From NCBI GenBank assembly GCA_910578855.1, contig CAJTRV010000004.1:5551-69550 (forward strand): a DNA stretch of 64,000 bases, in the 5' to 3' direction. Position numbers and translations under genes: made by a program. The DNA comes from an uncultured Bacilli bacterium. GTDB lineage: Bacteria > Bacillota_I > Bacilli_A > RF39 > UBA660. The notes under the pieces were generated by a model. It saw only the letters and a program-made list of their open reading frames with translations, was not told the DNA's origin and ran no database searches. Shown one piece after another: positions 4,604-62,201 of this stretch; within the stretch, counting starts at the first letter, position 1; the number at the start of each line of letters is the position of its first letter.

Positions 4604-6496
4604 TTAGCGTTTATAACAATACACCTTTGAATTTTCCTTTTTATATTGATTAGCCGTTAATAACTGGCCTGTCTCTATACTAGGTTTCACCATAAAATCA
4701 CCATCATACCCTTCAGCCTTTAACAAGGGTTGACTACGCTTTCCGCAACCGCTTAACGGAAATGACTCTTTCATACCACGAATTCGATAATACAAACAAT
4801 TTAACACTTCATCAGAAAAAACATTCTTACATCTTTTTTCAGCTCCCATTAAAACATTCGTGACATTAATCTTTACTCCTGGTTGAAACTCAATATGCAC
4901 AACAATCTTATCATCATTTTTATCATCTTTTACCATGACTAACTCGCATGACAAAATATGTTTGGTATCTTTTAATATCTCATCGCTTATTAAAAATAAG
5001 GGAATTTTTTCGCCATTACTACTAATAAATTCATTTCCTATTCTTCCTTTGATATGAATAGATCCAAATTGATCAATATATCCATAAACTTGACAATCTC
5101 CCCATCTTTTTCCTGTATTATCATAAATAAAAAATTGCCTCGTCGCTTCCGGATTATTTTTATATCCTTTCATTGTACAATTAGAATTGGCAACTAATCT
5201 CCCTAGTTCATTGACTCCACATCGCTTCCCGTTCTGATCCAAGATAGCATACTCAGCCAAAGCAAATGGTTTTAAACCAAATGATTTTTTCCGTAGCCAA
5301 CATGATAATCGCTTTTCTTGTAATGCCTTATAGAGAGTAAAAAATAATCCACCGTGTTCACAATCTCCCCCACCAATCGAAAGGCAAACTGGCGTATAAG
5401 GTAAATGAAACAGATCCTTTCCCGCTTTAGTAGTTTTCAAAGCTTTATTAATAAACTTTTCTTCATTAGGTGCGACCGGCTCACCTACCGCAGTTGGTAT
5501 TATCAAGAATGGCAATTGTAAATTTCGGTATGACTCATCAAATCTAATTTTCTTCGCCGCATTTAACCAAAAACTTGTAGTAGCTGGAACAAAATTAGGT
5601 TTGTTAATCATCAAACTAGTCAAAAAGAAATTTTGATCATAGATTGGCTCTAAGGCAACCGTCCCATGCTGCGATAATACATCAGAAATACTCGTAATTA
5701 AATCCGTATTCGAATGAGCTGGAATATGCGCTAATCCTCTAATATTTTTCATTGCTGGTAATCCTGAAACATCAGAATCATGAATCCGCGCCATGGTAAC
5801 AAAACTTCTAATTCGATGAACAATTGCCTTGGGTCTTGTTGAATGGGTAGAACCACTACTATATGTAATGGTGAATTCATCATCTAAATTGGTATTGGCA
5901 GGAACAATATCCTCCATATCATCACCAAAAGCTGCAAACTCTTTCACATCGATGATTTTATCATTTTCACATTGAAATTCTGGAATTTTATTCCTAAATT
6001 CGCAAAAAATCTTATCTACCTCATCATAAGGATCTATCCCGTCCTTCAATGAACTAGTCAACGAAACCAAAACAATCTTTTCAATGCTACTTTCTAAAGT
6101 TATATTCTTAATATCTTCATATTGACAGTCAGTCGCAAAGAATACTTTTGAACTACAATCATCGATAATCTTTTTTATATAATCCTGATCAAACTGACTT
6201 CCAAAAAGATTAATTTTAGCTCCAAGCATACTAATAGCCAATAAAAGATAAATAAGTTCTGGTGTATTAGATAAGCATGCTGATACTTCATCACCTTGTT
6301 TTATTCCTAGTTTTCGTAATGACTTTGCATACCTATTTGCTTCTTTCAACATCTCTTGATAAGAGATGTTGGTACCGCGGTACCATAGGGATGGCGCATC
6401 TAAATTATCTTTGTTTCGCTCATAAATGTCTTGAAACCACGACTCGTTATGTTGTTCTATTTCACTTAGTACTTCTTTGATATCAGATTCTTTCAT
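4604..6496 (-). CDS. Adenylate-forming enzyme of the AMP-binding / acyl-CoA synthetase-like superfamily.
   Basis: 630 aa. Degenerate A3 motif TYSSGSTHSTRPKA. C-terminal region ...GYKNNPEATRQFF...GDCQVYGYIDQFGSIHIKGR is typical of ANL enzymes. Confidence 0.55.
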   Translation of the reverse strand: MKESDIKEVLSEIEQHNESWFQDIYERNKDNLDAPSLWYRGTNISYQEMLKEANRYAKSLRKLGIKQGDEVSACLSNTPELIYLLLAISMLGAKINLFGSQFDQDYIKKIIDDCSSKVFFATDCQYEDIKNITLESSIEKIVLVSLTSSLKDGIDPYDEVDKIFCEFRNKIPEFQCENDKIIDVKEFAAFGDDMEDIVPANTNLDDEFTITYSSGSTHSTRPKAIVHRIRSFVTMARIHDSDVSGLPAMKNIRGLAHIPAHSNTDLITSISDVLSQHGTVALEPIYDQNFFLTSLMINKPNFVPATTSFWLNAAKKIRFDESYRNLQLPFLIIPTAVGEPVAPNEEKFINKALKTTKAGKDLFHLPYTPVCLSIGGGDCEHGGLFFTLYKALQEKRLSCWLRKKSFGLKPFALAEYAILDQNGKRCGVNELGRLVANSNCTMKGYKNNPEATRQFFIYDNTGKRWGDCQVYGYIDQFGSIHIKGRIGNEFISSNGEKIPLFLISDEILKDTKHILSCELVMVKDDKNDDKIVVHIEFQPGVKINVTNVLMGAEKRCKNVFSDEVLNCLYYRIRGMKESFPLSGCGKRSQPLLKAEGYDGDFMVKPSIETGQLLTANQYKKENSKVYCYKR

Positions 6497-6580: not shown

Positions 6581-7672
6581 TTATTTTTGATAACGACTAA
6601 TATTTAAAATAATTCCAATACTAGACATCGTAATAAGCAAGCTAGAGCCTCCATAACTTAGAAATGGAAGTGTAACCCCAGTTACGGGAATTAAGCCAGT
6701 TACAACCATTAAATTTAAAATCGCTTGGAAGCCAATTTGAAAGGCAATCCCAAATGTCAAATACTTCGCAAACATATCTTGACTCTTTCTAGCAATCTTA
6801 AACGCACGCGTAAGAATAATAAGAAACAAACCAACGACAATAATGACCCCTAGAAAACCAAACTCTTCACTGATAATGGAGAATATAAAATCAGTCTGTG
6901 GTTCTGGTAGATAGAAATGCTTTTGTCGCGAATTTAAAAAGCCATAGCCAAATAATCCTCCAGGACCAATCGCATATAACGATTGAATGATCTGGAAGCC
7001 ACTACCAAGTGGATCCTTCCATGGATTTAAAAAGGATAATATCCGTTCTAACCGATAGGGAGCTACAGCAATCAAGCCAACAATCCCGGCCATTCCAAGC
7101 ATTCCCATGCGTAAGAAAAATTTGAAAGGAACACCGCCAACAAAGATAAGCCCCATAATACTCATCACGATAATCATTCCGGTTCCAAAGTCAGGTTGTA
7201 ACATAATAATTCCAAAGACAAGTAAGGTAAGGCTTAGAATCGGTAAAACCCCTTTTTTGATATCAGTCATCTGCTTTTCATTCTTAACCAGATACTTCGC
7301 TGTAAAAATGATAAGTGCCAATTTCATGAACTCACTTGGTTGAATCCCAAATGAGCCAATTCCAAACCAGCTACGACTTCCATTCCGAACCGTTCCAATC
7401 CCAGGAATTAAGACCAACACCAATAAAATAAAACAGGTAATAACCAAAGGTGTAGCCTTCTCATAATAAAGTCGATAATCAATTTTACTAATAACATACA
7501 TAAAAACTAGTCCCAAGAGAAAGAAGACACCTTGATTAATGACAAATTTAAATGGATTATGAAACTTATATTCAGCCCATACATAAGAAGCGGAATAAAT
7601 CATGATAATTCCAAAGATGGAAATCAAGATCACACTAATCAGAAGTCCATAATCAATATTCCCTTTTTTCAT
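6581..7672 (-). CDS. ftsW: FtsW/RodA/SpoVE family peptidoglycan glycosyltransferase (cell-division / SEDS protein).
   Basis: 363 aa with about 10 TM helices and SEDS-family conservation. Located in the dcw cluster downstream of mraY. Confidence 0.8.
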   Translation of the reverse strand: MKKGNIDYGLLISVILISIFGIIMIYSASYVWAEYKFHNPFKFVINQGVFFLLGLVFMYVISKIDYRLYYEKATPLVITCFILLVLVLIPGIGTVRNGSRSWFGIGSFGIQPSEFMKLALIIFTAKYLVKNEKQMTDIKKGVLPILSLTLLVFGIIMLQPDFGTGMIIVMSIMGLIFVGGVPFKFFLRMGMLGMAGIVGLIAVAPYRLERILSFLNPWKDPLGSGFQIIQSLYAIGPGGLFGYGFLNSRQKHFYLPEPQTDFIFSIISEEFGFLGVIIVVGLFLIILTRAFKIARKSQDMFAKYLTFGIAFQIGFQAILNLMVVTGLIPVTGVTLPFLSYGGSSLLITMSSIGIILNISRYQK

Positions 7673-22028: not shown

Positions 22029-22907
22029 TTGAATATTCATCCCCAACATGTTATAATACAACCATTCCAAGTCACGCTTTTAAATACCATAAAAAGAAGT
22101 GAGGAAAATATAATATATATATCTTACTATTTATGTATATTATATTACTTTATAATGAAATATAATTTAGACAAAGAGGCGGCGCTATTTATCGATAGAA
22201 TTAATCATGGTTTTTTCTACCAAGATTACCTAAAAAACGGGGCAAAAAGTTATCACGATACCGGAAAAGCAGACCAAGATGTCCAGACGTTCCTTGATTG
22301 TATGCTTTTAGATTTTCCTGATTTATTCGCCCAGGAAACCCCTTATACAATTAATGTCAAATACAGCGAATTATTAGATCCAATTTATTTTGAAACAATG
22401 AAAAATAGATATAAAATGATTCTAGAAGAAATGATAGCTTTCATTGAAAAAGGTAATCATGAAAATAATTTAATTATAAATACCAATCTTTTAAGTCAGG
22501 CTATTTTGGATTACTTTCTTAATATTCAACATTTAAAGAGTATTTATAATGTTTACAATGTTAACACCGATATCATCTATGCTGATACAGCATTCTGGCT
22601 CTTACGAAAGAAGCCTATTCAAGTTATCCCTACTTTGAATCATGATGAAATAACAATTCCAAACCAAAAGGAAGCAATCAATCAATTCCTATTTATCAAT
22701 GAAGAGTTTGTTGCTTTCCAAATGATAAGTAATCTTTTATCAGACTTAGAAATTAATCCATTCTTATTAAAAACGGAAGAAACACATCTTACTGAGTTTT
22801 ATAATCATTTATTATACTATTTTAAAAATTATGATTTCACATCATTCCATTTAGAGTTAATGGTGAAGGGATTTAGATCCGGCTATACATTCGGTAAAAG
22901 AAAATAA
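22029..22907 (+). CDS. Hypothetical protein (start uncertain; possibly the internal MKYNL at about 22154).
   Basis: 292-aa ORF with no clear RBS at the annotated start and no recognisable family. Confidence 0.35.
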   Translation: MNIHPQHVIIQPFQVTLLNTIKRSEENIIYISYYLCILYYFIMKYNLDKEAALFIDRINHGFFYQDYLKNGAKSYHDTGKADQDVQTFLDCMLLDFPDLFAQETPYTINVKYSELLDPIYFETMKNRYKMILEEMIAFIEKGNHENNLIINTNLLSQAILDYFLNIQHLKSIYNVYNVNTDIIYADTAFWLLRKKPIQVIPTLNHDEITIPNQKEAINQFLFINEEFVAFQMISNLLSDLEINPFLLKTEETHLTEFYNHLLYYFKNYDFTSFHLELMVKGFRSGYTFGKRK

Positions 22908-24139: not shown

Positions 24140-24216
24140 GGACCTTTAGCTCAGTTGGTTAGAGCATCCGGCTCATAACCGGACGGTCGATGGTTCGAGT
24201 CCATCAAGGTCCACCA
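24140..24216 (+). tRNA. tRNA with CAT anticodon. Most similar to the lysidine-modified tRNA-Ile2 type; elongator tRNA-Met cannot be excluded.
   Basis: Cloverleaf ggaccttTAGCTCAGTTGGTtAGAGC...ggCTCATAAcc...GGTTCGAGTCC...aaggtccACCA. Closely resembles the B. subtilis tRNA-Ile(CAU) sequence. Confidence 0.8.
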
Positions 24217-24222: not shown

Positions 24223-24307
24223 GCGAGTGTGGCGAAATTGGCAGACGCACTAGACTTAGGATCTAGCGCCTTATGGCATGGGGGTTCAAGTCCCTTCACT
24301 CGCACCA
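24223..24307 (+). tRNA. tRNA-Leu (anticodon TAG), a class II tRNA with a long variable arm.
   Basis: Acceptor stem gcgagtg/cactcgc plus CCA. Anticodon loop cTTAGGa. TPsiC arm GGTTCAAGTCC. Confidence 0.85.
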
Positions 24308-24439
24308 TCGATGAATCTGTTCGAACTATTCGAACTTCATATATAAATATCAACTCAATTTGGGTTGATTTTTTCGTTATATGGAAAATCATCCTACTAA
24401 GAAAAGCTAGTGTCTATGATAAACATTATTAAGCAAGAA

Positions 24440-25100
24440 ATAACTTTTGATGAATCTTTAAAATAAAAATTAGAGTTTATCTATAGTTTTTGCAATACTA
24501 CATCTACTATTTATAATGAATTTATCATATTTCTTCATTATTCTTATCTCCAATGATATCATACTAAGATGTATCACAAGGGTAAATTTTTCATTAAAAA
24601 ACGTCTATACCCAAAACTGCACCAGCGTATTTTGACCAAGTTACTTTAAATTCACTTTGGACTACTTTTAGATTAGCAGTAAATTTTATAGTCTTTACTT
24701 GGAACATATTTTAAGAAATTTCTAATTAAACGTACAATACATCTTTGTACAATAACACCTTTAAAGATTCCTTTTGCACCATCCTCAATACCACTGACTT
24801 CATCCATAGAAATAAAGAATATGTCTTCAACACCACGAGTTTTTATCTCATCAAATATTTGCACCCAAGAATGCTTCGATTCTGTCTCATTTAACCAGAT
24901 ACCAGTGAGATCCCTATGACTATCATCATATCCAAGTATTATATAAACAGCACTTTCCGTACGTTCAGATTCATAACACATCATAACATACACATTTCAC
25001 CCTGTAGCATCACCTCAAACATAGGAACAAATACATCTTTTAATACATCCGGCACTTCTTTAGTAGTTTCTGGTTGATAAACACCTAACATTGATTGAAA
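24440..25100 (-). mobile_element. Decayed IS256-family insertion sequence. Includes the internal transposase fragment ORF 24673..24993.
   Basis: The 106-aa ORF AVYIILGYDDSHRDLTGIWLNETESKHSWVQIFDEIKTRGVEDIFFISMDEV...IVRLIRNFLKYVPSKDYK aligns to the central DDE region of IS256 transposases. The flanks contain out-of-frame remnants. Confidence 0.6.
24673..24993 (-). pseudogene. IS256-family transposase fragment (central region only).
   Basis: See the mobile element above. The ORF is truncated at both ends relative to a ~390-aa transposase. Confidence 0.6.
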
Positions 25101-25210
25101 TAGCTCATTTTACTTCTCATACTTTTACCTCTTTCATTTATTTTATCACACTATAAAAGTGCGTAGCTTTTACTAGACTACACACTTTATTTTACGCACT
25201 CTCGACTTAA

Positions 25211-25645
25211 TTATAATTTGATGCTAATATTTTTAGTTGCTCCCTGATTACCAGTTGCAAATACTTTTATACTTTCTGGATCTGTTAAAAAGTACATGTT
25301 GTAAACTACTTTTTCCCTTATTAATTGTAACCATTTATTATCATCATCAACCATAGATCTACCAAACCTTGAAATTAGAACTAAATCGTCACCAATTTCA
25401 GTTATGTTTCTTTTTATTGTATCAACGTCATTGTGAATAAATCCACATGCATCTGAACAAGCTAAAAGATAATCTAGCGCCTGAAAATCTTCTAAACTTT
25501 GAAGTCGATTCCAAAGCCTACCACTTTTTAAAGTCGTCAAACTTGCTAAACTTATCAATAGATGTTCATCAATCCCTAACTCTTGTAAGATAAATGTCGT
25601 CAGTATTGATATATAATATCTCTAAAGTTTAAAAATAACTAAAAA
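25211..25645 (-). pseudogene. Hypothetical gene fragment lacking a start codon, possibly a remnant of a mobile or defence gene.
   Basis: The 115-aa ORF reading frame stays open upstream to about 25645 (..LTTFILQELGIDEHLLISLASL..) without an ATG or RBS. AT-rich islet context. Confidence 0.3.
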
Positions 25646-26650
25646 TTATAATAGCGTTTTTAATACTAAGTCAATTAAAAAAGAGATCGTTTTAGATTTT
25701 CCATAAAATTGATAAAAAAAGTTTCTAATATAGGTATTATAAATTAAGAATTTTGATATTCTATGATTAAAAATTATAAATCTATCCTTCCACATTCGAA
25801 CTTTATAAAACCAATTCATTGATTTTGATAAATTATAAGAAGATGATACAGCATAATAAATTCCCTCACCACTTACTGGAGAAATAAGACCTGCGGCATC
25901 TCCTACAAAAAATATATCCCCTTTTCTCAGAAAAATATTATTCCCTGTTGGCAAAAAGGCTCCCCTCATAGGAATATCATTCTTTAAATAAAAATGATTT
26001 AAAAATATATTTTGAATATCCGTATTTTGAGAAACATCTCCCAACCCCCTCAAATTAGTTTTATTATTTGAAATAGTCCAAGCATATCCTTTGAAATGAT
26101 TAAAAAAATCTATTTGAATTATTTCGTTTTTTATGGCATTTTCACTTTCAATAGCAAAATTCATTTTCTGACGTTTACCTGTCAAATCATTTCTTACTTT
26201 ACTAAAAACCCCGTCTGCCCCAACTAAATGATTATATTTAAAAGCTTTCTCAGAAGTATATATAATTTTATTTTTAAAATCTATTTTTTCATAACTAGTG
26301 TTATCAATAACTTTCCCACCACATTGTTTAAACTGATTAACTACAAAATCGTCCAAATCTTTTCTATCTATTGTATATATCGAATGCATCTTTATTTCTT
26401 TTGTAATTCCATTATTATTAACCTTAAAAGTATCAAATTTTTTAAAATCTATTTTTGCAAGTTCTGTTCCATATATTTTAAATAAAAGTTTATATGCCTT
26501 CGTTGTAACGATCCCCCCACATAATTTGTTTTTCTTTTTTAAATCTTGACTTTCAACAATCATTACAGTTTGTTTTTTATTTAGAAGAAGATTACCCAAA
26601 GTGCATCCTGCTAATCCCGCTCCTATTATTATAGTATCAAAATACTCCAT
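25646..26650 (-). CDS. FAD-dependent oxidoreductase of the geranylgeranyl-reductase-like family.
   Basis: N-terminal dinucleotide-binding motif IIIGAGLAGCTLG. GDAAG motif (FFVGDAAGLISPVSGEGIYYA). Very AT-rich codon usage, distinct from the core genes. Confidence 0.65.
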   Translation of the reverse strand: MEYFDTIIIGAGLAGCTLGNLLLNKKQTVMIVESQDLKKKNKLCGGIVTTKAYKLLFKIYGTELAKIDFKKFDTFKVNNNGITKEIKMHSIYTIDRKDLDDFVVNQFKQCGGKVIDNTSYEKIDFKNKIIYTSEKAFKYNHLVGADGVFSKVRNDLTGKRQKMNFAIESENAIKNEIIQIDFFNHFKGYAWTISNNKTNLRGLGDVSQNTDIQNIFLNHFYLKNDIPMRGAFLPTGNNIFLRKGDIFFVGDAAGLISPVSGEGIYYAVSSSYNLSKSMNWFYKVRMWKDRFIIFNHRISKFLIYNTYIRNFFYQFYGKSKTISFLIDLVLKTLL

Positions 26651-26937
26651 TTTAACCTCCGATATTTAAATTTTTCCTTTTGATAATTATACCATTTTTT
26701 ATAAATTTATAATAGAATACTAAAATCTTTTTATATGCTTTTTATTTAACCAAAAGTTACATAATTATAATCGATATCGTAAATATAGTATTAAATCAAT
26801 ATAGCTCCATCTTATCCTATTGTATACAACTCTATCTAATTACCGATCCCTGTCCCCTAACCTCATCAAAAATACACGTTATTCATAAAAAATATGCTAT
26901 AATAGTTATAATCATTTTAACCATTGGAGGTGTTGGA

Positions 26938-27537
26938 TTGTCAAAGATATCAAATGTTATAACAATGCTTAATCTTCTAGCAACTGGTAAAAAATATGGC
27001 ATTAAAGAACTCGCTAATCTGCTAGAAGTATCACCAAGAATGATTAGAATATATAAAGAAGAGTTAGAAAAAGCAGGAATCTATATTGATTCTATTATGG
27101 GACCATATGGAGGATATGTCTTAAATCAAACAATTAGAATTCCAAAACGTAAATTTAAACAAGAAGATTATCTATTACTCGATCAACTACTAACGAATCA
27201 TATTTCTAATCTAGAAAAAGAAAAACTAGAACTATTAAAAGATAAAATTAGAGGTATCTACATTGGAAGTACCCAAGAAAGAGTCGAATTAAATTTGGAC
27301 GATTACAATTTAAAAAAATATAATATTTTAACACGAGCCATTAAAGAAAGACAAAAAGTAAATACCTTATATTATTCTTATAACAAAGGTGAACATGAAA
27401 GAGTAATCTGTCCAGCTGAAATGTTTTTATTTAAAGATGGCTGGTATTGTGCCGCCTATTGCACCCTTAAACACGATATGAGACACTTTGAATTAAAACG
27501 AATTAGAAATATAGAACTTTTAGATGATAAATTTTAG
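26938..27537 (+). CDS. HTH plus WYL-domain transcriptional regulator (YafY-like).
   Basis: TTG start 7 nt after GGAGG. N-terminal HTH_11-like region (ITMLNLLATGKKYGIKELANLLEVSPRMIRIYKEEL). C-terminal WYL-like segment (DGWYCAAYC...RHFELKRI). Confidence 0.65.
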   Translation: MSKISNVITMLNLLATGKKYGIKELANLLEVSPRMIRIYKEELEKAGIYIDSIMGPYGGYVLNQTIRIPKRKFKQEDYLLLDQLLTNHISNLEKEKLELLKDKIRGIYIGSTQERVELNLDDYNLKKYNILTRAIKERQKVNTLYYSYNKGEHERVICPAEMFLFKDGWYCAAYCTLKHDMRHFELKRIRNIELLDDKF

Positions 27538-27595
27538 AGTAGACCATATATTACCTCCTTACGTGATAAGATTCATGTAGGAGGTAATTTTAATT

Positions 27596-28510
27596 ATGAA
27601 AGACAATATGAATGATAATTTTTCTAAATTACAAGCAAGAGTCTTCGATTCTATAGGCAAAACAGATTTACTAGCAATACGAAATATTTTATCTACAATA
27701 AAGGACCCTACACTGGTAAGTGGGGTCGGTGGTTCATCCGTAGTGAGTTTATTTTTATCCAAAGTATTAAGTGCTAAAAATAATATTATATGTGAAGATG
27801 TGACCCCAAGAGACTTAAATTATAAAAATTTACAAGGTTTTAAAAATATCATCGTCTGTAGTTATGGAGGGCTTAACTATGGTGTTACAACAGCCTTTAA
27901 TCATGATTTAACAAAATATTTATTGGCTAGGAACACCAAAGACGAAATCATCAATCTTCAATATCAAAACGATGATCTAGAAAAAAGTTTTATTTCACTG
28001 GCGGCAACTTTAATCCCAATGACTATTTCCTTGATGTATTATTTGGACAATGATCCTACGATTATCTATGAAATTTTGAATTCATCACCTCAGTTTGATT
28101 TTATCGATCATGATATCTATGAAATATTGACTGGATACGAAACGAGCACAGCCGCAAGATTCATGGAATCAACCCTAGTCGAAGCAGGGCTTGCAATTCC
28201 TATCCTCCACGATAAATATGACTATTGTCATGGAAGAACAACATTAGGCTTTCAACAAGATCATGGTTTACTATTCTTTAATAATCATAATGAGTTAGAC
28301 CAACTATATAGCGAGATACTAAATCATGCCTATCACAACATCATCACAATCGATCGAAAATATGATGATCATATTATTAACGATTATTATTTTACCTATA
28401 TAAGTATGCTATTATGTAAGAAAATTGCCGAACAAAAAGGAAAAGATTTATCAAATGTAAGTTATTCGCCACTCGTCAAAAAACTATATTTTTATAAAGG
28501 AGAAATGTAA
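27596..28510 (+). CDS. Hypothetical protein co-operonic with the WYL regulator, with a weak Rossmann / SIS-like G-x-G-x-S motif.
   Basis: RBS GGAGG upstream. VSGVGGSSVVSLFL and IIVCSYGG glycine-rich segments. No confident family assignment. Confidence 0.4.
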   Translation: MKDNMNDNFSKLQARVFDSIGKTDLLAIRNILSTIKDPTLVSGVGGSSVVSLFLSKVLSAKNNIICEDVTPRDLNYKNLQGFKNIIVCSYGGLNYGVTTAFNHDLTKYLLARNTKDEIINLQYQNDDLEKSFISLAATLIPMTISLMYYLDNDPTIIYEILNSSPQFDFIDHDIYEILTGYETSTAARFMESTLVEAGLAIPILHDKYDYCHGRTTLGFQQDHGLLFFNNHNELDQLYSEILNHAYHNIITIDRKYDDHIINDYYFTYISMLLCKKIAEQKGKDLSNVSYSPLVKKLYFYKGEM

Positions 28511-28523
28511 AAAAAGTCTACAA

Positions 28524-29480
28524 TTAAATAGACTTTTTGATTTCATTCTTCTCAGGATAGATCGCAAATAAAACAATTTCCGTTGGAAAAATATTACTAC
28601 CATAAAATCTTAAATAAAATTCATATCCGGGACAAATCTCCTCGATCATTTTAGGAATTTTCCACAAATCCTCATGGTTATGGTAAACAGATAGTAATAA
28701 TTTAGGATGATCTTCTACAATATGTCGCCGACACCCTAATAATGCTTTCGTCTCTGCCCCTTCAATATCCATTTTCACCATTGTAATTGGTTCACTAATA
28801 TCATCATCCAAGGTTACCGTTTCGACAAATGTATTCCCATTGTCTACTAACACATTGGCAGAAGCATTGACCCTATTCGTATCCATCGAGACAACTTCTT
28901 GTCGATCAGTCACAGCTTTTTTACGACATACAATATTGGGATAATCTTTGACATTTGTTTGGAGATTTAAAAATGTCTCATCCGTCATTTCGTAACAATA
29001 AATTTTTTGATAAGCATCCAAGCCATAACTATGAATAAAGTCTAAGGTCGAATCACCAATATAAGCTCCAACATCAACCAATATTTCTTGATCACAAGTC
29101 ACAATATCTAAATCAAAATAGTGACAATAAGTTTGATCCATTAACTCCTTTAAAGTTGTAAAATCGTAATCATACCAATTATATAATATAGCAAATAATA
29201 ATTTTTTTGAACGATAATCTTTTAAGTGTTGATATAACCAGCGATAATCATCAATATGATCATGAAGTGATTCTGCTTTATTATGAATCTCTTCATATAC
29301 TTTCTTCTGATCATCTAATACACCCCAATAAGGAAAATCAGATAAGAATTGTTCCATTGACTGTTTCACTGCTAGTGGAAGTAGCTGGTACTTCTTCTTG
29401 ATATGTTCAAATACTTCTATCTTCGTTTTTCCTTTTATTTCCGAAGTTAACCATTCAAAATTGCGATCCACATAATTCAT
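28524..29480 (-). CDS. FkbM-family methyltransferase.
   Basis: VDVGAYIGDSTL and KMDIEGAE are hallmark FkbM motifs. Confidence 0.7.
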   Translation of the reverse strand: MNYVDRNFEWLTSEIKGKTKIEVFEHIKKKYQLLPLAVKQSMEQFLSDFPYWGVLDDQKKVYEEIHNKAESLHDHIDDYRWLYQHLKDYRSKKLLFAILYNWYDYDFTTLKELMDQTYCHYFDLDIVTCDQEILVDVGAYIGDSTLDFIHSYGLDAYQKIYCYEMTDETFLNLQTNVKDYPNIVCRKKAVTDRQEVVSMDTNRVNASANVLVDNGNTFVETVTLDDDISEPITMVKMDIEGAETKALLGCRRHIVEDHPKLLLSVYHNHEDLWKIPKMIEEICPGYEFYLRFYGSNIFPTEIVLFAIYPEKNEIKKSI

Positions 29481-29586
29481 CTTCTCACATCCTATTTCTT
29501 TACATCATATTCTAAACTTGAAAAATGATACCAATAATTGATTAAAGAATCGGAAACGTCCATAAATAATATTATGAACGTTTTTT

Positions 29587-54230: not shown

Positions 54231-55108
54231 ACAAGTTCCTCAATTCGATCAAAGGTAATTCCTTTTATTAGACCACTTTTCATATCGTTTAAAATGAGAT
54301 TCATCACGCGGTCATAATCAATTTCCCCACCCTGAATCATACATCCTCGACGTTTACCAATGATATCCAACGTGTTAACCATATCTTCTTCATCAATAGT
54401 CGTAATTCCATAACGTGATTCTAACTCCTGAGGATAATAAGTATATAGCATGTTCAAAATGTAACAGACCACATCATAAATAGGCAATACTTCCTCTTTA
54501 ATTGCCGTTAAACTTGCGAGATTAAGGGCAATAGTTTGATCATCAAACTTCGGCCATAGTACCCCTGGTGAGTCTAACAATTCAAGACGCTGATTGATGC
54601 GAATCCAATCCAATGACTTCGTCACTCCAGGACGGTTTCCAACATTGGCAACCTTTTTTCCAACTAAGCGATTGATCAATGTGCTCTTTCCAACATTGGG
54701 AATCCCGACAACAAGGACCCGAATACGTCTTGATTTCATTCCTCTAGCAATCATATCATCCATCTTATCTTGCATCATCGCTTCAGTCTTTTTCACTATT
54801 CCGGTTGTACTTTGTTGATGCTCTAAATCAACCCCCATTACTTGATAACCTAGTTGTTCATAATACCGAATCCAGCGCTCTGTTTCTTTTTTATCACATA
54901 GATCCATCTTGGTCATAATTAACAACTTCGGCTTATTTCCAATAATCGATTCAATATCTTGAATCTTTGATGAGTATGGCATCCGAGCATCGATTACTTC
55001 ATAAACAACATCAATAACACTCATTTTTTCCTTCATAATTCGCTTGGCTTTCGCCATGTGACCGGGATACCAGTTGATTGTCGTATTTTGTCCTTTATTG
55101 TCGTTCAT
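54227..55108 (-). CDS. rbgA: Ribosome biogenesis GTPase A (RbgA / YlqF).
   Basis: Circularly permuted GTPase motifs (IDARMP...TKMDL...GIPNVGKSTLINRL). Start at MNDNKGQ, preceded by AAGGAAGTGAAACAA. Confidence 0.85.
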   Translation of the reverse strand: MNDNKGQNTTINWYPGHMAKAKRIMKEKMSVIDVVYEVIDARMPYSSKIQDIESIIGNKPKLLIMTKMDLCDKKETERWIRYYEQLGYQVMGVDLEHQQSTTGIVKKTEAMMQDKMDDMIARGMKSRRIRVLVVGIPNVGKSTLINRLVGKKVANVGNRPGVTKSLDWIRINQRLELLDSPGVLWPKFDDQTIALNLASLTAIKEEVLPIYDVVCYILNMLYTYYPQELESRYGITTIDEEDMVNTLDIIGKRRGCMIQGGEIDYDRVMNLILNDMKSGLIKGITFDRIEELV

Positions 55109-55559
55109 TTGTTTCACTTCCTTTAGATTTATTTTTATATTTAACATATTCTTCAATTTTTTTATTATAGTTCTTTAAATCTTCTACAAATTGAGGCTTA
55201 AATTGATTTAAATAATCAATGATTAAATCAGCATATTCATCAATATTTTCATCATCAACTATATCTATGAGATATTTATTGATTCCTTTTTTAGTATTTA
55301 TTCTTTCTACATAAAAGGCTAACAAATTAGTTGGACCTATTTTTTCTTTTGCTGATAAAACAATAGAAATCAAATTTTCTCTTGATGCATAATATCTCGG
55401 TTTAAATCCATTTGACCTAGAAAATAATATCAAAGTACAACCAATAAATAATTTATCTGAACCATTTTTAGGAAATGTTTTGTTTGCAAATTCAATTAAA
55501 CTTTCTGTATTACCCTGTTCGTAATCATCATATAGTTCCATTAAAATTCTATTTATCAT
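55095..55559 (-). CDS. Hypothetical protein, the variable last gene of cassette A. Its 3' end reads through the rbgA RBS and start.
   Basis: 154-aa ORF. Its stop overlaps the rbgA start by 14 nt. Confidence 0.4.
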   Translation of the reverse strand: MINRILMELYDDYEQGNTESLIEFANKTFPKNGSDKLFIGCTLILFSRSNGFKPRYYASRENLISIVLSAKEKIGPTNLLAFYVERINTKKGINKYLIDIVDDENIDEYADLIIDYLNQFKPQFVEDLKNYNKKIEEYVKYKNKSKGSETNERQ

Positions 55560-55569
55560 TTTATCTCCT

Positions 55570-55845
55570 CTATTTATATAGACTTTTTATAACTCTATTA
55601 ATGCAATCTTTGGCACTTCTGTTATTATTTGAAAAACTAATTTTTACTAATGTCCCATTTACTTTAAAAGCATATGGATTCTTTGTGGAAGCAATAAAAT
55701 CCAATATTCTTTCATTACTAGGTTTTCTTCTATCTATTTTTATATTTGTTATTTCATCCACATCTTCTAATTTTACATCATCAAGATTTACATTTCTACA
55801 TCTTTCTAATTTTTCTGCTAATTCTTTAATATTATATTTATTCAT
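55570..55845 (-). CDS. Small conserved cassette protein (about 91 aa), paralog of 57697..57996.
   Basis: The N-terminal 50 aa are about 96% identical to the cassette B copy at the protein level, and about 97% at the DNA level over about 145 nt. The C-terminal half is diverged. Confidence 0.5.
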   Translation of the reverse strand: MNKYNIKELAEKLERCRNVNLDDVKLEDVDEITNIKIDRRKPSNERILDFIASTKNPYAFKVNGTLVKISFSNNNRSAKDCINRVIKSLYK

Positions 55846-55927
55846 AAAATCACACTCCATATTAATTATAAAATCAAATACAATTAATGTTAAATGTGCA
55901 ATTTTTTATTATAAATGATAATCTTTA

Positions 55928-56953
55928 CTAATCTTTATTATTTTCTGAAGTTTCTAATAATTTTGTACTTTCAATAAATTTATCGAAGTCAGAAATATAT
56001 AATTGGTCTTGTTTTTCCTTAAACTTATCATACTCTTTATATGCAAGTTCTTGAGCCACTTTATGAGATATTTTTCCTGCATCATGCAGTATTTCTTGCC
56101 CATTAAATTGTAAAAACGCATCCAATTTTTCTACCCAATCTTTCATTGTCATCGCATTATGATTTTCTGCTTGTAATTCAGCATAATCTAAATACATAGT
56201 AACTATTCTATTTAAGTTTTTTAATTCTTTTTCTGTCAAATAATTTTTAGCAATATCAACATCATATTTATAAATCGTTCCATCAGGAGAACCTGTCCAA
56301 TTTGTTAAACCCATATTGTCTTTTTCTGAATCAACTCTATTATAAATAATCTCTGCAGCAGTATTACCAGTGACTGAATAATGAAGTTTATTCTGCACAG
56401 TTTTAAAAAAAGTTTTAGTGATTTCTGAATCTTTATCATAATCAACACTACAAGATGAATATATATCTGTTATCTTTTGGTAAAATCTTCTTTCACTAGA
56501 ACGAATATTTCTAATTCTTTCTAGTGTTCTTTCAAAATAATCTTCTCCAAAAATATAATTTGGATTTTTTAATCTCTCGTCATCCATAACAACGCCAGTA
56601 ATTAAGTATTCTTTTAGAACTTTTGTTGCCCATATTCTAAATTGCGTTGCTTTTTTGGAATTAACTCTATAACCTACAGCAATAATCATATCTAAATTGT
56701 ATATTTTAGATTTTCTTCCACCTGTACTTTCGTCGGAAATTCCGACAGAAGTTTCTTCCTTAAGTTCACCACTATTTAATATATTATTAATATGTTCTGT
56801 TATGGTACTTCTACCTACTCCAAATAATTCAGCAATCAAATTTTGCGTCAACCAAATATCATTATTAATTAATAATACATTCACTTTGATATCATTATTA
56901 TCATCACGATATATTAAAAAGTCGTGGGTAGTTATTTGTAAATTATTTTTCAT
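55928..56953 (-). CDS. RhuM-family protein (the first gene of cassette A, a member of the KilA-N/Bro-N-related superfamily).
   Basis: WLTQNLIAELFGVGRSTITEHINNIL and KIYNLDMIIAVGYRVNSKKATQFRIWATKVLKEYLITGVVMDDERL are hallmark RhuM regions. Confidence 0.75.
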   Translation of the reverse strand: MKNNLQITTHDFLIYRDDNNDIKVNVLLINNDIWLTQNLIAELFGVGRSTITEHINNILNSGELKEETSVGISDESTGGRKSKIYNLDMIIAVGYRVNSKKATQFRIWATKVLKEYLITGVVMDDERLKNPNYIFGEDYFERTLERIRNIRSSERRFYQKITDIYSSCSVDYDKDSEITKTFFKTVQNKLHYSVTGNTAAEIIYNRVDSEKDNMGLTNWTGSPDGTIYKYDVDIAKNYLTEKELKNLNRIVTMYLDYAELQAENHNAMTMKDWVEKLDAFLQFNGQEILHDAGKISHKVAQELAYKEYDKFKEKQDQLYISDFDKFIESTKLLETSENNKD

Positions 56954-57215
56954 TTATTTTCACCGCTTTCTTATGTTCTTAAATGTCGTAATCACCTATC
57001 TAATTTCTATTATAAATAGCGCAAAAATTACTATATTTTTATGAATTTTTATTGTTTTTTATCATTTTTTAATGAAAACATGCAAGATATAAATTGGATA
57101 GTTTCCTTTATTTATAAGGGTTTAAGGGTGTTCTTAATTAAATCGTAATCAACCAGTTTATGTTTGCCTGATTTTGTCGATTTTCATTATTCATTTATTT
57201 CACTTCCTTCAATTC
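56954..57215. repeat. Direct repeat R2, the cassette boundary. It is a degenerate rbgA 5' end (57150-57213) followed by a ~150-bp regulatory region carrying two TGATTACGA motifs (fwd TCGTAATCA at 56986-56994 and 57143-57151).
   Basis: About 85-90% identical to 58900-59147. Contains aaggaagtgaaataaATGaataatgaaaatcgacaaaatcaggcaaacataaactgg on the minus strand. Confidence 0.7.
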
Positions 57216-57704
57216 AATATTATTTTCTAATAAAACGCTTTCTAATGTTTCATTTTCGTTTATAATATATAAGTTCTCATAATTTCTTTGCAAACAATCC
57301 TCATAGAATGGAACAAATACATTTCCCAAGCCACTAATAAAACTTTCATTATTACCTCGATTTATACACTTTCTCTTTACATCTTCCCAATTATTAATAT
57401 TAGGATATGCTATACTGTATTTAATATTATTTTTATCGAAATAATCGAAGTGTTCTGGTTTTAATTGAACTAAAACAACATCATATTCCTTTATAGCCAT
57501 TCGAATGGCTTTATAGTAATTCTTTGGCCATTCACTATTTACTTCTCTTTTCGTTCCTTTTCTTGCTTCAACAGGTACATTTTCAAGATTAGTATTAATA
57601 TATTTAAAATTACTCGATTCTAAATCAATTACATTCCTATATTTTTTACCCAAAATGCTTTTTCCACACGTTGCAAATCCTGCAATTATTATTCCCTTAG
57701 CCAT
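57195..57704 (-). CDS. P-loop NTPase / small kinase-like protein, the variable gene of cassette B.
   Basis: Walker A motif GFATCGKS near the N-terminus. 169 aa. Its stop abuts the pseudo-rbgA ATG of R2. Confidence 0.5.
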   Translation of the reverse strand: MAKGIIIAGFATCGKSILGKKYRNVIDLESSNFKYINTNLENVPVEARKGTKREVNSEWPKNYYKAIRMAIKEYDVVLVQLKPEHFDYFDKNNIKYSIAYPNINNWEDVKRKCINRGNNESFISGLGNVFVPFYEDCLQRNYENLYIINENETLESVLLENNIELKEVK

Positions 57705-57996
57705 TATTTACCTCTTGTCTATATAAATTTTCTAAAATTTTAGTTAAACAATCATCTGCAGTTAAATTACTATTTTCTGAAAATCTTATTCTAACTAATT
57801 TCCCATTGACTTTAAATATATATGGGTTCTTTTTCTTCATTACAAACGCTAATATTCTTTCATTACTAGGTTTTCTTCTATCTATTTTTATATCTGTTAT
57901 TTCATCCACATCTTCTAATTTTACATCGTCAAGATTTACATTTCTACATCTCTCTAATTTTTCTGCTAATTCTTTAATATTATGTTTATTCATATT
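57697..57996 (-). CDS. Small conserved cassette protein, paralog of 55570..55845.
   Basis: MNKHNIKELAEKLERCRNVNLDDVKLEDVDEITDIKIDRRKPSNERIL... The start is at MNKHN; the track ORF is extended upstream. Confidence 0.5.
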   Translation of the reverse strand, partial: NMNKHNIKELAEKLERCRNVNLDDVKLEDVDEITDIKIDRRKPSNERILAFVMKKKNPYIFKVNGKLVRIRFSENSNLTADDCLTKILENLYRQEVNNG

Positions 57997-58056
57997 ATAC
58001 CTTCTTTCTATAATAATTTTATTATTTAGAAAGAAATAACACAAATGTGCAAAATA

Positions 58057-58899
58057 CTAGATATTATCTTTTTCTCCTAATAGTTTTATCTTTTCTGCAT
58101 TATTAAGTATATCAAGTTGATACTTAGCAATGCTACTTAATATTTCAAATCTTTCTTCTTTGCTTTTTCCTTCTTTAATTAGTTCTGCATTATGTGATTC
58201 TAAATTAGATAATACTGTTAATTCATTTATCGATGCATAATCTCTAACATTTGAGTTTTTTGCTAAATTCGGATTAAGTTCTCTCCATCTTTTAGCAGTT
58301 GTGTTAAATAAGGCAACATTTAAAATATCTGCTTCTTCTGCATACTTTAACCATTCTCTATCTTTATAATAATCATTATCAGGTAATATATAATTTTTAA
58401 TTGCATCTGTATGAATAAGATAATTATTTTTGGTTAAGATTCTTTTTATATCCCATTCCCTATTTTGATTTTCTAACTCTTTTAGTCTTTCAAATTCTTT
58501 TATCAAATATAGTTTAAAAACCGGACTAATAGAAGATGCAAATTCAAAAGCAATGTCTTTATGAGCATAAGTTCCACCATATTTTCCACGCTTCGAATAT
58601 ATCCCAATTGCATTTGTTTTACTACACCATTCTGTAACACTTAGTGTAAAAGTATGAAGTCCTGCCTCACTTTTAAACCCGTCGAATTCGACGGAATTAA
58701 AATTTGGATTGTAAATTGACTCCCAAGTACCTAAAAATTCTAAAGTAATTCTATTTCTTAACCAATTTCTGATAACATCATCTGATGTAGATTTTCCTTC
58801 TTTAAACTTGGTAAAATCAGAAATACAAATATAATCGCTATCATTTATATTTGTTATGTTCACTTTAATATTTTGAACTTCAATTATTTTGTTTGGCAT
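58057..58899 (-). CDS. KilA-N domain-containing protein, the first gene of cassette B.
   Basis: DYICISDFTKFKEGKSTSDDVIRNWLRNRITLEFLGTWESIYNPNFNSVEFDGFKSEAGLHTFTLS...RGKYGGTYAHKDIAFEFASSISPVFKLYLIKEFERL matches the widespread KilA-N family pattern. Confidence 0.7.
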   Translation of the reverse strand: MPNKIIEVQNIKVNITNINDSDYICISDFTKFKEGKSTSDDVIRNWLRNRITLEFLGTWESIYNPNFNSVEFDGFKSEAGLHTFTLSVTEWCSKTNAIGIYSKRGKYGGTYAHKDIAFEFASSISPVFKLYLIKEFERLKELENQNREWDIKRILTKNNYLIHTDAIKNYILPDNDYYKDREWLKYAEEADILNVALFNTTAKRWRELNPNLAKNSNVRDYASINELTVLSNLESHNAELIKEGKSKEERFEILSSIAKYQLDILNNAEKIKLLGEKDNI

Positions 58900-59147
58900 A
58901 TATTCGCCTCTTTTCCATGTCCTTAAAATTCGTAATCACCTATCTAATTCTTATAATAAATAATACCAAAATTATTAGTTTTTATATTTTTAATTATTTT
59001 TTAATGAAAATATGCAAGATCTAATCTAGATAATTTTCTTTATTTATAAGGGTTTAATGGTATTCTTAATTAAATCGTAATCAGCCAGTTTATGTTTGCC
59101 TGATTTTGTCGATTTTCATTATTCATTTGTTTCACTTCCTTTATTAT
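58900..59147. repeat. Direct repeat R3 (cassette boundary) with the same architecture as R2. TCGTAATCA motifs lie at 58930-58938 and 59075-59083. The rbgA-like RBS plus 14 codons lies at 59082-59142.
   Basis: ggaagtgaaacaaATGaataatgaaaatcgacaaaatcaggcaaacataaactgg|ctgattacga on the minus strand. Confidence 0.7.
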
Positions 59148-59312
59148 TTAACATTGAGAATTTAAAAAATTTGCAATTTGTTCTAAATTTTTAAATATTT
59201 TTCCATCATTTCTTATAACTATTCCTCTTGCACCATATCTCATTCTAGGCTCATTCATTTCAATCATACTTTCGCCTAAATCTTCATCAGTTATTTTACA
59301 TATTAATTTCAT
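59148..59312 (-). pseudogene. Truncated NUDIX-hydrolase-like N-terminal fragment (54 codons).
   Basis: MKLICKITDEDLGESMIEMNEPRMRYGARGIVIRNDGKIF resembles a NUDIX N-terminal strand. It is followed by an early stop. Not in the ORF track. Confidence 0.35.
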
Positions 59313-59338
59313 TAATATCATCTCGCTTTCATTTTATA

Positions 59339-59863
59339 TTACAACTTGTATTCTTTTATCTCACAATTCTTCAATCCACGATTTAAAAACCAACCATCAT
59401 TAATGCCATCAAAATATGCACTAAAAGCTTTTGAAACACCACTATGTGCAACAATTAAAACACTTTTATAATTTTGAGTTTTAAGTTCATCTAAAAAATT
59501 ATATATTCTATCAAAAAAGTCTTTTATATTTTCAGAGGTTCCATATTGAATTGTTGTATTATAATTCCAATATTCATCACGATTAGTTATTTCAAGAGGT
59601 TTACCACTTAAATCTCCACAACTTCTTTCTTGAATTCTATCATCAATAATAATTTCATTATTATTAGCATTAATAATATTAGCTGTGTGTTTTGCCCTAA
59701 TTAAAGGTGAAGAAATTATAATATCAAAGTTTATATCTTTAATTTTGTCTCTTAATTCTTCTGCTTGACTTATTCCAAGTTCAGTTAAATCTTCATCTTT
59801 TGTATTATATTGTTTCAATGCATTATGAGGTACTTCACCATGTCTTACTATATATATTTTCAT
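59339..59863 (-). CDS. Histidine phosphatase (phosphoglycerate-mutase-like family), in cassette C.
   Basis: IYIVRHGEV (RHG catalytic motif) plus a second His in VAHSGV. Confidence 0.7.
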   Translation of the reverse strand: MKIYIVRHGEVPHNALKQYNTKDEDLTELGISQAEELRDKIKDINFDIIISSPLIRAKHTANIINANNNEIIIDDRIQERSCGDLSGKPLEITNRDEYWNYNTTIQYGTSENIKDFFDRIYNFLDELKTQNYKSVLIVAHSGVSKAFSAYFDGINDGWFLNRGLKNCEIKEYKL

Positions 59864-59989
59864 TTATTGACTCCTTTTTTATAGAATTTTTATAGTAACA
59901 TTTTATCATCGAGGATATATATTTATTTTATTATTGATACCATTATATTAAAATCATACTCATTTTTACTATTTTTATCTGTTTCTAAG

Positions 59990-61263: not shown

Positions 61264-61400
61264 CTCTTTTCTATGGTCTTAAATGCCGTAATCATCTTTC
61301 TAATTCTTAAATAAAAATATGGAAAATTTAAAATCGTACAACCTCCTTATTTATAGGGATTTACTTAAGAGTGCAATAAATCGTAATCAAACAGTTAATT
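61264..61400. repeat. Direct repeat R4, an older degenerate copy of the cassette boundary. It has two TGATTACGA-type motifs (61286-61294 variant CCGTAATCA, and 61381-61389). Only codons about 7-14 of the rbgA-like segment remain.
   Basis: cttaaatgccgtaatcatctttctaattcttaaata...ttatttatagggatttacttaagagtgcaataaatcgtaatcaaacagtt aligns with R2 and R3. Confidence 0.55.
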
Positions 61401-61503
61401 CTGACTGATGAAAAACTTTTTTGATTACTTTCGCTATTCTTTTTTCTTGTCTCATTTTTCCCTTTTGATATATATCCATATTTTTCACTTTCTTTTCAAT
61501 AGT

Positions 61504-62064: not shown

Positions 62065-62201
62065 TTATCTCTCTCCTTACAATTTATTAAATATAATACC
62101 ATTTAATAAAAGAGAATTCCTTTATTAAAATCATTCTAGTTTTATCCACTATAGATTCCTCATAAGATAACCATTTATTCATTTCGAAAATGCATTTATT
62201 T

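Follow-up and report, generated by a model that had tools for sequence, protein, structure and literature searches.

A putative WYL-gated promoter set within a terminator hairpin may drive a tandem-SIS enzyme in a resident two-gene module of uncultured gut Bacilli

In the literature cited here, WYL-domain regulators have been described almost only from DNA-damage responses and phage defence, and those characterised there all sense single-stranded DNA (ssDNA) (PMC11804915, PMC11662680). PafBC is activated by ssDNA; the helix-turn-helix (HTH) of PafB binds a −26 motif, and PafBC forms a bridge to sigma region 4 (PMC11804915). The sites of DriD lie at a fixed distance from the −10 element, in promoters without good −35 elements (PMC13004042). 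CapW and BrxR, winged HTH (wHTH)-WYL-WCX repressors of CBASS (cyclic oligonucleotide-based antiphage signalling) and BREX (bacteriophage exclusion), bind palindromes, and CapW contacts ssDNA via a Ser and three Arg residues (PMC11662680). Among phosphosugar enzymes with two SIS domains, a Glu and a His spaced by exactly 16 are the hallmark of GlmS, FrlB, and FraB (PMC10285752); for FraB, residues E214 and H230 have been named (PMC12359202). Here we describe the region 24308–29500 of a 64,000-nt stretch of DNA from an uncultured Bacilli bacterium (the whole stretch is called the window below), in which the gene of a short wHTH-WYL regulator is followed on the same strand by the gene of a 304-aa protein, predicted to be a divergent tandem-SIS enzyme (Table 1). 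In our best model, to which we assign a probability of about 0.5, a WYL-gated promoter embedded in a terminator would drive the enzyme gene within a resident module. Each part has known counterparts, among WYL regulators, tandem-SIS enzymes, and terminator hairpins respectively, and none is a standard member of its kind. A full-text literature search returned no paper with both "WYL domain" and "SIS domain".

Table 1 Features in and next to the region under study, with the basis of each assignment.
Feature	Position in the window	Strand	Basis
tRNA-Met(CAT)	24140–24216	+	ARAGORN, Rfam
tRNA-Leu(TAG)	24223–24307	+	ARAGORN, Rfam
Terminator-like hairpin and T-run closing the tRNA transcription unit	24349–24369	+	Consensus scan
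IS256-family transposase relic, internally deleted and frame-broken	24615–25106	−	NF033543, PF00872, tblastn
5′-truncated pseudogene of a conserved hypothetical of ca. 178 aa	25211–25621	−	Comparison with P0425
Geranylgeranyl-reductase-family-like FAD oxidoreductase	25646–26650	−	TIGR02032
TGCTATAAT, likely −10 of the WYL gene promoter	26895–26903	+	Read from sequence
Short wHTH-WYL regulator, 199 aa, TTG start, no WCX	26938–27537	+	Pfam, PADLOC, profile, fold
Conserved 17-nt box TAGACCATATATTACCT (family consensus TWGACSAWATAYTTCCT)	27540–27556	+	Columns 16–32 of 69 copies
RNA hairpin	27550–27588	+	ΔG, covariation
TGATAAGAT, extended −10-like (TGnTAnnnT)	27564–27572	+	Column profile, 69 copies
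Predicted divergent tandem-SIS (GlmS/FrlB-type) phosphosugar enzyme, 304 aa	27596–28510	+	AlphaFold2, Foldseek, profile
FkbM-family methyltransferase, convergent	28524–29480	−	TIGR01444

Relatives of the enzyme turned up in 161 places when one genome per species was scanned, and 80 species-level loci were retained; open reading frames (ORFs) were called and clustered in 96 loci for the comparison of neighbourhoods. A WYL gene lay directly upstream of the enzyme gene, on the same strand, in 89 of the 96 loci, and five of the seven exceptions were cut by contig ends. When the count was restricted to the species-level loci with at least 700 nt upstream (n = 76), the two genes were found together in 74 genomes of uncultured gut Bacilli, and the pairing spans more than 100 species. 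In one locus, L011, whose enzyme is 59% identical to that of the window, the gene order is c21, c13 (139 aa), tRNA-Met(CAT), tRNA-Leu(TAG), 676 nt of spacer, the WYL gene, the enzyme gene, a Ham1 gene and, further on, CysS. The window carries the c21, c13 (139-aa), and CysS genes too, on either side. The tRNA pair, which is the conserved left neighbour of the WYL and enzyme genes in both, is 91% identical between the window and L011, and the WYL promoter region (window 26882–26994) aligns to the L011 region upstream of the WYL gene at 73%. Because the pair is near-universal in the lineage and stands behind the same tRNA pair with the same neighbours in L011, 26938–28510 is a resident, lineage-wide two-gene module of uncultured gut Bacilli and not imported cargo. 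In L025 and L045, SpoIID-like and LysM genes occur near the pair as they do in the window; the genes around the pair otherwise differ completely between species (LysR, radical-SAM, ABC ATPase, HD, GDPD, and others). In 26 of 73 species, a gene for an ATP-binding-cassette-type ATPase of ca. 560 aa (ABC_tran, weak SMC_N) lies no more than 8 kb from the pair (e.g. L007 9159–10841), and it often begins ca. 230 nt 3′ of the enzyme gene. In the complete circular 1.2-Mb metagenome-assembled genome (MAG) of L025, tRNA-Ala(TGC) at 7199–7275 immediately precedes the WYL gene; therefore, tRNA adjacency of the pair recurs without island features.

The first-pass annotation of the region had named its genes correctly and at the right places, as domain searches confirmed, and had taken 24308–29500 for a horizontally acquired islet linked to tRNA-Leu, with the 304-aa protein as the functional cargo under a WYL regulator of the defence or mobile-element type. 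In favour of such an origin, an IS256 insertion sequence (IS) relic and a truncated gene adjoin the tRNA, the geranylgeranyl-reductase-like and FkbM genes are confined to the species of the window, and the WYL protein matches the CRISPR-associated WYL model of PADLOC. The GC content also drops after the tRNA pair, but mildly: it is 0.292 in the region and 0.336 in the whole window, and 9.7% of 5.2-kb windows are equally low or lower. The GC content of the pair is below that of the host window and nearer to the ca. 0.26 typical of relatives; in the 80 other loci, it is 0.260 for the pair and 0.270 for the flanks. Against an islet, a direct repeat of the tRNA-Leu 3′ end that would mark an att site, suggested for the stretch near 29.5 kb, was looked for and occurs nowhere else in the 64-kb window (24 nt with 3 mismatches, 15 nt with 2 mismatches, and repeat finding). 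Domain searches of the ORFs of 24308–29500 revealed no integrase or recombinase, only the dead IS256 transposase. No relative of the enzyme was found in 2.9 million viral contigs, and outside the IS256 part the region had no plasmid or phage DNA match. No defence effector was detected by PADLOC, in which only the WYL protein matched, to regulator models, and the 304-aa, geranylgeranyl-reductase-like, and FkbM proteins had no match; the enzyme had no PHROG match either. In other species, the neighbours of the pair are housekeeping genes, and the enzyme bears a metabolic catalytic signature described below. The proposed acquisition is thus hardly tenable and, for the WYL gene and the gene of the 304-aa protein, largely refuted: tRNA adjacency, the IS relic, and low GC content had led to resident genes being misassigned as cargo, and the earlier reading was in this respect mostly wrong. 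The pair is the ancestral resident next to the tRNAs, and what varies is the stretch that separates it from them, together with the FkbM gene. The segment 24308–ca. 26880 and the FkbM gene are absent from the homologous site of L011, where the WYL and tandem-SIS genes are present, and the variable or foreign DNA is 24308–ca. 26880 (IS256 relic, truncated gene, and geranylgeranyl-reductase-like gene) plus the FkbM gene.

The WYL and enzyme genes do not overlap, as had first been described; they are separated by 58 nt in the window and by 50–58 nt in the family, and this spacer contains a strong hairpin. The spacer sequence is conserved across species whose proteins are only ca. 50% identical. 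An nhmmer model of it gave exactly one match per locus in 93 of the 96 loci, always just 5′ of the enzyme ORF, and the element was absent only from one truncated contig and from two loci that also lack the WYL gene. No Rfam family matched 27530–27600 even at E ≤ 10. Further analyses used 69 unique copies aligned with MAFFT, which contain no indel over columns 9–62. The near-invariant part of the alignment is the box T-W-G-A-C-S-A-W-A-T-A-Y-T-T-C-C-T, which contains no indels, occurs once per locus at this position only, and is found nowhere else in the 64 kb.

The hairpin begins within the box. Its 5′ arm includes an anti-Shine-Dalgarno (anti-SD) segment, CCTCC (27554–27558), and its 3′ arm the Shine-Dalgarno (SD) sequence of the enzyme gene, GGAGG (27580–27584), followed by T-rich DNA and the ATG. 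The window copy folds with a free energy (ΔG) of −21.5 kcal/mol (z −5.5), and all 69 copies fold alike, with a stem of 10–20 bp and a mean ΔG of −16.1 kcal/mol. Of the 69 copies, 64 have the SD inside the 3′ arm and 53 have a U-run behind the stem, counted as 5 or more T among the 8 nt that come next; in 65, the fold is more stable for the sense strand than for the complementary one. Support for the hairpin was drawn from folding each sequence singly, from aligning the arms in a strand-neutral way, and from counting pairs in a fixed register, in place of RNAalifold. Among the transition-type mismatches between the arms, G·U exceeded A·C by 75 to 7 (50 to 5 outside the anti-SD), and this excess indicates selection on the transcript rather than on a DNA palindrome. 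In the fixed register, 74.8% of cells were paired compared with 44–61% in slid controls, 9 of 13 pairs had double changes, and the covariation score was above all 500 shuffles.

The loop has a second character. Together with the last stem pairs it has the profile T 72%, G 90%, n, T 100%, A 99%, T 75%, w, w, T 88% in the 69 copies, and read by position this resembles the extended −10 element TGnTATAAT. In the window, the six bases TAAGAT (27567–27572) are exactly the hairpin loop, and TG is at 27564–27565. From this profile, a putative internal promoter would have the box at about −39 to −23, and the arrangement suggests a promoter nested inside a terminator. As in terminators and SD-sequestering hairpins of the riboswitch type, a stable stem is followed by a U-run and the SD in the 3′ arm is paired to an anti-SD; in contrast to those platforms, no aptamer is recognisable and no Rfam family matches, and in contrast to ordinary terminators, the loop carries a conserved extended −10 and a DNA-like box abuts the stem.

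The same inverted repeat could instead be a palindromic DNA operator flanking the −10, bound by a WYL dimer acting as a classical repressor, with the RNA hairpin incidental. The repeat is centred on the −10-like hexamer, and CapW and BrxR are, as stated above, palindrome binders. However, the excess of G·U over A·C of about 10 to 1 also holds in the inner stem outside the SD, the distance between the arm centres, ca. 24 bp, is large for a single HTH dimer, and the arm sequences covary freely between species in which the regulator is 70–80% conserved. A pure DNA operator is hence distinctly improbable.

Other explanations of the spacer were also weighed. A TWGAC motif that resembles a −35 element lies 21 nt upstream of the −10-like element, and a canonical sigma-70 promoter that uses it was ruled out by this spacing, which is too long for sigma-A. 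Pairing of the UA in the loop with the invariant AUA in the 5′ flank, as a pseudoknot, was ruled out on geometry, the flank abutting the base of a stem of 13–16 bp. Anti-terminator pairing of TTTTAAGTAG at the WYL stop codon with the 3′ arm was ruled out, as that segment does not covary with the stem. Translational coupling by the terminating ribosome is unlikely with a stop-to-stem gap of ca. 12 nt. A natural deletion was observed in L050 (7600–7760), in which ca. 20 N-terminal codons of the WYL gene are joined straight to the enzyme SD. The same deletion removed the remainder of the WYL gene, the box, the −10-like loop, and the anti-SD arm; it left the SD free and the enzyme gene behind the WYL promoter.

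The HTH-WYL assignment of the regulator was confirmed by matches to Pfam PF13280 (1.8e-16) and to the PADLOC WYL model (1.5e-29), and its N-terminus matched the Pfam models HTH_11 (1.8e-5) and Rrf2-type HTH (3.8e-6). It has more than 2,500 homologues, almost all of 197–204 aa, of which the near ones are 70–81% identical, and it is better conserved than the enzyme. A profile of the family matched the WYL domains of PafBC (5e-9), CapW (4e-6), BrxR, and PafC. The AlphaFold2 model has a predicted local distance difference test (pLDDT) score of 72 overall and 85–92 in the WYL domain, and its fold aligns over the HTH and WYL domains with PafBC, DriD, BrxR, and CapW. The chain stops at residue 199, directly behind the last WYL strand, and has no WCX domain. 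In the WYL pocket, S147, R182, and R188 are invariant, and the positions of the two Arg of the RWHVR motif are occupied by G168 and A172. The resulting motif, G-W-Y-C-A, is near T-W-Y-F-E of PafBC and unlike RWHVR of the repressors.

The regulator thus resembles PafBC and DriD in having a wHTH, linker helices, and a WYL domain with the canonical W-Y-x motif, and its putative target, a box at a fixed distance from a −10 with no usable −35, is laid out as their promoters are. It differs from them in its size (199 aa without WCX versus ca. 320 aa for each DriD subunit or PafB or PafC chain), in its occurrence in Bacilli rather than in Actinobacteria or Alphaproteobacteria, and in having apparently a single target, a metabolic-type enzyme; its ssDNA binding is putative. 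With CapW and BrxR it shares the order of the first two domains, the WYL-pocket S147 and the C-terminal R182 and R188, and a gene position immediately upstream of what it putatively controls. In contrast to these repressors, it lacks WCX, has GWYCA in place of RWHVR, has no adjacent defence genes, and faces a target site with no evident palindrome. RpiR/MurR proteins also associate an HTH regulator with a SIS phosphosugar-binding fold, and the profile of the enzyme family matches MurR/RpiR SIS domains; here, however, the two SIS domains make up a polypeptide of their own, with the catalytic residues retained, and the HTH protein would sense via its WYL domain.

The 304-aa protein had no Pfam, NCBIfam, PADLOC, or PHROG match, and a narrow-profile search of the PDB gave none or spurious ones. 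At least 862 homologues, without Pfam domains, were found in gut metagenomes and in MAGs labelled "Bacilli bacterium", and an exhaustive search of 1.8 billion representatives yielded 223 relatives, 42 of which (20–51% identity) were aligned. Single-sequence searches did not place the protein; only a fold search and a broadened profile did. The AlphaFold2 model, built from 43 homologues, has a pLDDT of 91 and a predicted template-modelling (TM) score of 0.92, and the best 50 Foldseek matches are all tandem-SIS proteins (TM 0.6–0.8), which bears out the SIS-like loops noted in the first-pass annotation. These matches include AgaS as well as Lmo0035 (2aml), the isomerase domain of GlmS, NagB-II, and the FrlB proteins of B. 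subtilis and Salmonella, the last four kinds at TM 0.7–0.8; Lmo0035 reached an E of 3e-12 and a TM of up to 0.80. Sequence identity to solved structures is only 10–15%. The broad profile matched B. subtilis FrlB (3eua) at 2e-7 across both SIS domains.

In the alignment of 42 sequences, G45-G46-S47, E196, and H212-G213 are invariant. The phosphate loop is G43-V-G45-G46-S47; in the profile alignment, GTGGS pairs with ACGGS of FrlB, and C88-S89-Y90-(S/G)91-G92 aligns to CSHSG of FrlB, giving SYSG for SHSG as the SxSG motif. E196 and H212 are 16 residues apart, and "vEsG...ycHGr" aligns with "MEMQ...YFHGP" of FrlB. The protein therefore shares with FrlB, FraB, and GlmS, and with NagB-II and AgaS, two SIS domains in ca. 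300–340 aa, a GxGGS phosphate loop and SxSG in SIS-1, and an invariant Glu/His pair 16 apart in SIS-2. It differs in that T96 and E98 of FrlB are Asn94 and Gly96 in the window enzyme, and in the family's own HDKYxxCHGR and SFISL motifs. Its modelled fold and its motifs place it as a highly divergent member of the GlmS/FrlB/NagB-II class that appears to be equipped for catalysis. The class of its chemistry is predicted with good support: it would act on a 6-phospho ketose or aldose(-amine), as an isomerase, deaminase, or deglycase. It is predicted to be a homodimer in which Glu196 would act as the base and His212 as the acid. The membership in a housekeeping sugar-phosphate isomerase family that would speak against an islet is thus seen at the fold, motif, and profile levels.

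Several length variants were observed in the family. In about 10 of 80 species, the enzyme has an N-terminal extension of ca. 110 aa without Pfam match and with a conserved "ILxDxYIxWL" start (L062, L069, L087, L092, L095, and L057; P0121, P0125, P0129, P0130, and P0138), and the conserved spacer element precedes the extended ORF. A sub-branch of 343–354 aa has an insertion of ca. 45 residues between the SIS domains (P0033, P0042, P0044, P0052, and P0054; L015 and L021–L030); these five proteins come from rabbit "Lapin" MAGs.

According to our model, the WYL gene would be transcribed from whatever promoter lies upstream, in the window TGCTATAAT. No operator or other element upstream of the WYL genes was conserved across species; some WYL genes have their own TGnTATAAT promoter, and others stand directly after another ORF. 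The hairpin and its U-rich tract would terminate the WYL or upstream transcript, and in any read-through RNA the hairpin would pair the enzyme SD with the anti-SD; upstream transcription could therefore not express the enzyme. The enzyme gene would instead be read from the extended −10 in the hairpin loop, with the RNA starting ca. 7 nt downstream, probably near 27579. Such an RNA would begin at the SD without the anti-SD arm and would therefore be translatable. The box, at a fixed distance from the −10, would replace a usable −35, and the WYL protein would bind it and gate the promoter upon ligand binding. By analogy with PafBC, DriD, and CapW, the ligand may be ssDNA. The canonical W-Y-x motif, the best matches to PafBC, and a layout as in WYL activators make us lean towards ligand-dependent activation rather than repression. 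Since an extended −10 can fire without a −35, the WYL protein may alternatively repress.

A switch made of RNA alone would explain part of these observations. In this case, the hairpin would be an attenuator that terminates and sequesters the SD on a single WYL-enzyme transcript, the −10-like loop would be a contact for a protein or RNase, and the opener would be the WYL protein on the single-stranded 5′ flank GUAGACSAAAUA, a small ligand, or ribosomes ending at the WYL stop. The strong selection for the sense strand, seen in the G·U excess and in the stabler sense strand of 65 copies, would be expected of such a switch, as would the U-run in 53 copies and the WYL stop codon at a fixed 12–15 nt from the stem. 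WYL and Sm-like domains, including the WYL domains of CapW, DriD, and PafBC, also bind single-stranded nucleic acid. An RNA loop, however, does not explain why the loop profile mirrors TGnTATAAT position by position, and the absence of indels from the 5′ flank and loop points to a constraint on DNA spacing. Moreover, a ribosome that terminates at the WYL stop would probably stay too far from the anti-SD to open it, the gap to the stem being 12 nt. No known aptamer would fit into so short a flank, no Rfam family matches, and no covarying alternative pairing was found. We therefore regard an RNA-only switch as unlikely.

The following observations weigh against the model of a WYL-gated promoter within a terminator. 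RNAalifold run on the MAFFT alignment found no consensus structure, which we attribute to bulges in different registers. When the region was scanned for generic promoters, sites were no more numerous than in shuffled sequences. The putative internal promoter rests on a consensus-like profile, and the DNA is AT-rich, so that strings resembling a −10 are common in it. The box has none of the obvious palindromes or repeats that a homodimeric HTH protein would be expected to need. With regard to ssDNA sensing, G168 and A172 replace the Arg pair that flanks the Trp in CapW, and the WCX domain, which in CapW helps form the ssDNA crevice, is lacking. On the side of the enzyme, the window protein does not reach the Pfam SIS model (PF01380), and the window copy has Gly91 where the family has Ser. 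The Ham1 and PfkB associations described next are also limited: Ham1 is directly downstream in 12 of 73 species and not at the window locus, and the PfkB fusions are only ca. 25% identical, so that their function may differ.

The role of the enzyme is the weakest link of the model. In L011, L015, L016, L017, L019, and L045, a Ham1 (ITPase-like) gene starts 1–2 nt after the enzyme stop codon, and Ham1 is fused to the enzyme in P0123 and P0186. PfkB kinase-enzyme fusions were found in P0226, P0242, and P0255; P0226 and P0242 are distant members that do match PF01380, at 7e-8 and 6e-6. The coupling and fusion to Ham1 (ITP/XTP-type) and the fusion to PfkB suggest a metabolite or nucleotide "housecleaning" role rather than bulk sugar catabolism. 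The Ham1 coupling, taken with the precedent of other WYL regulators, suggests that this role may be one of damage control. As a long shot, the pair might be a damage-induced deglycation and pool-sanitising system: the WYL protein would sense ssDNA, and an FrlB-like deglycase would clear 6-phosphofructosyl adducts, that is, Amadori adducts derived from glucose 6-phosphate, from amines such as guanine nucleotides, with Ham1 as the non-canonical nucleoside-triphosphate pyrophosphatase partner. The promoter nested in the terminator loop would then express the enzyme, and this one DNA/RNA element would shield its gene from upstream transcription as well as gate it.

A nutritional role, the use of fructosamines or amino sugars, is a serious rival, somewhat unlikely as we hold it to be. 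The enzyme would then be a fructosamine-6-phosphate deglycase or a glucosamine-6-phosphate or galactosamine-6-phosphate deaminase that serves the use of dietary Amadori compounds or amino sugars in the gut, and the WYL protein would sense that sugar, with no link to DNA damage or nucleotide hygiene. The nearest sequence match is B. subtilis FrlB, the fold matches include NagB-II, AgaS, and FraB/FrlB-type proteins, and the distant branch fused to PfkB mirrors the pathway logic of the FrlD kinase and FrlB deglycase. Amadori compounds are, in addition, abundant gut nutrients (PMC10285752). In contrast to FrlB, however, the enzyme stands in no sugar-utilisation operon: no transporter or kinase is consistently adjacent, and the WYL gene is the only conserved neighbour. 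The recurrent partner, by adjacency and fusion, is Ham1, which has no role in sugar catabolism, and a sugar-sensing WYL protein would depart from the ssDNA sensing of the characterised WYL regulators.

The DNA on either side of the pair proved variable. ARAGORN could not separate Met from Ile2 for the first tRNA of the left border. The description of an internally deleted IS256 relic was exact, and the relic is a fair sign of local plasticity. Its 106-aa ORF (24673–24993) matched NF033543 at profile positions 137–232 of 338 and also PF00872. With the intact 430-aa transposase of E. faecium IS256 as the tblastn query, aa 12–49 aligned to 25106–24993, aa 176–282 to 24993–24676 in a different frame, and aa 304–315 weakly, so that aa 50–175 are deleted; only these parts of an intact transposase (ca. 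400–430 aa) are recognisable. ISBsu2-like plasmid sequences matched the relic at 72%. Two independent metagenome contigs of the same species, L002 and L005, end inside the relic (window 24877–24993) and hold the first 39 codons only, which suggests that those populations carry the IS sequence in repeated or polymorphic form.

The start-less gene fragment next to the relic is real, although its open frame ends at 25621 and not at 25645 as first given. It is 72% identical to residues 52–176 of P0425 (179 aa), the first ca. 51 residues being gone, and intact relatives of ca. 178 aa occur in unrelated housekeeping contexts. The geranylgeranyl-reductase-like flavin adenine dinucleotide (FAD) protein was confirmed with 129 bits against TIGR02032, under the cut-off of 158.8, and the GC content of its gene, 0.262, is the lowest of any gene in the region. 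The convergent FkbM methyltransferase scored 60 bits against TIGR01444, over the cut-off of 37.7. In the clustering of the 96 loci, the clusters of the geranylgeranyl-reductase-like, truncated, and FkbM genes contained loci of the same species only. At the FkbM position, other species carry Ham1 or unrelated genes, and the FkbM gene is outside the conserved module. At the site of the IS256 relic, pseudogene, and geranylgeranyl-reductase-like gene, L011 has its 676-nt tRNA-to-WYL spacer (4669–5343), in which no ORF was called and some segments are GC-richer and possibly structured.

Two further observations concern the rest of the window. Its most AT-rich part, 55000–63000, has a GC content (0.24–0.28) far lower than that of 24308–29500 and encodes proteins with RhuM-family, KilA-N, and Bro-N domains, all on the minus strand; it is a stronger candidate than 24308–29500 for the remnant of a mobile element or prophage. 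Between CysS and a cysteine-synthase-like gene, a 292-aa ORF (22029–22907, GC 0.282) had no Pfam, NCBIfam, PADLOC, or PHROG match and was found only in the same species among the loci fetched.

In the gut Bacilli described here, a minimal WYL protein is tied to one metabolic-type enzyme. Because the likely WYL target site is conserved to the nucleotide, the pair offers a compact system in which to ask what WYL proteins sense in Bacilli, and with it the mechanism of a two-domain WYL protein can be addressed. The enzyme represents an unannotated tandem-SIS family of at least 862 members, with no Pfam model, no solved structure, and no closely related protein that has been characterised, and the fusions to Ham1 and PfkB hint at a substrate as yet unexplored. 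If the model holds, the −10 element lies in a terminator loop and the ribosome-binding site serves as the 3′ arm of that terminator, which would be an unusually economical regulatory design.

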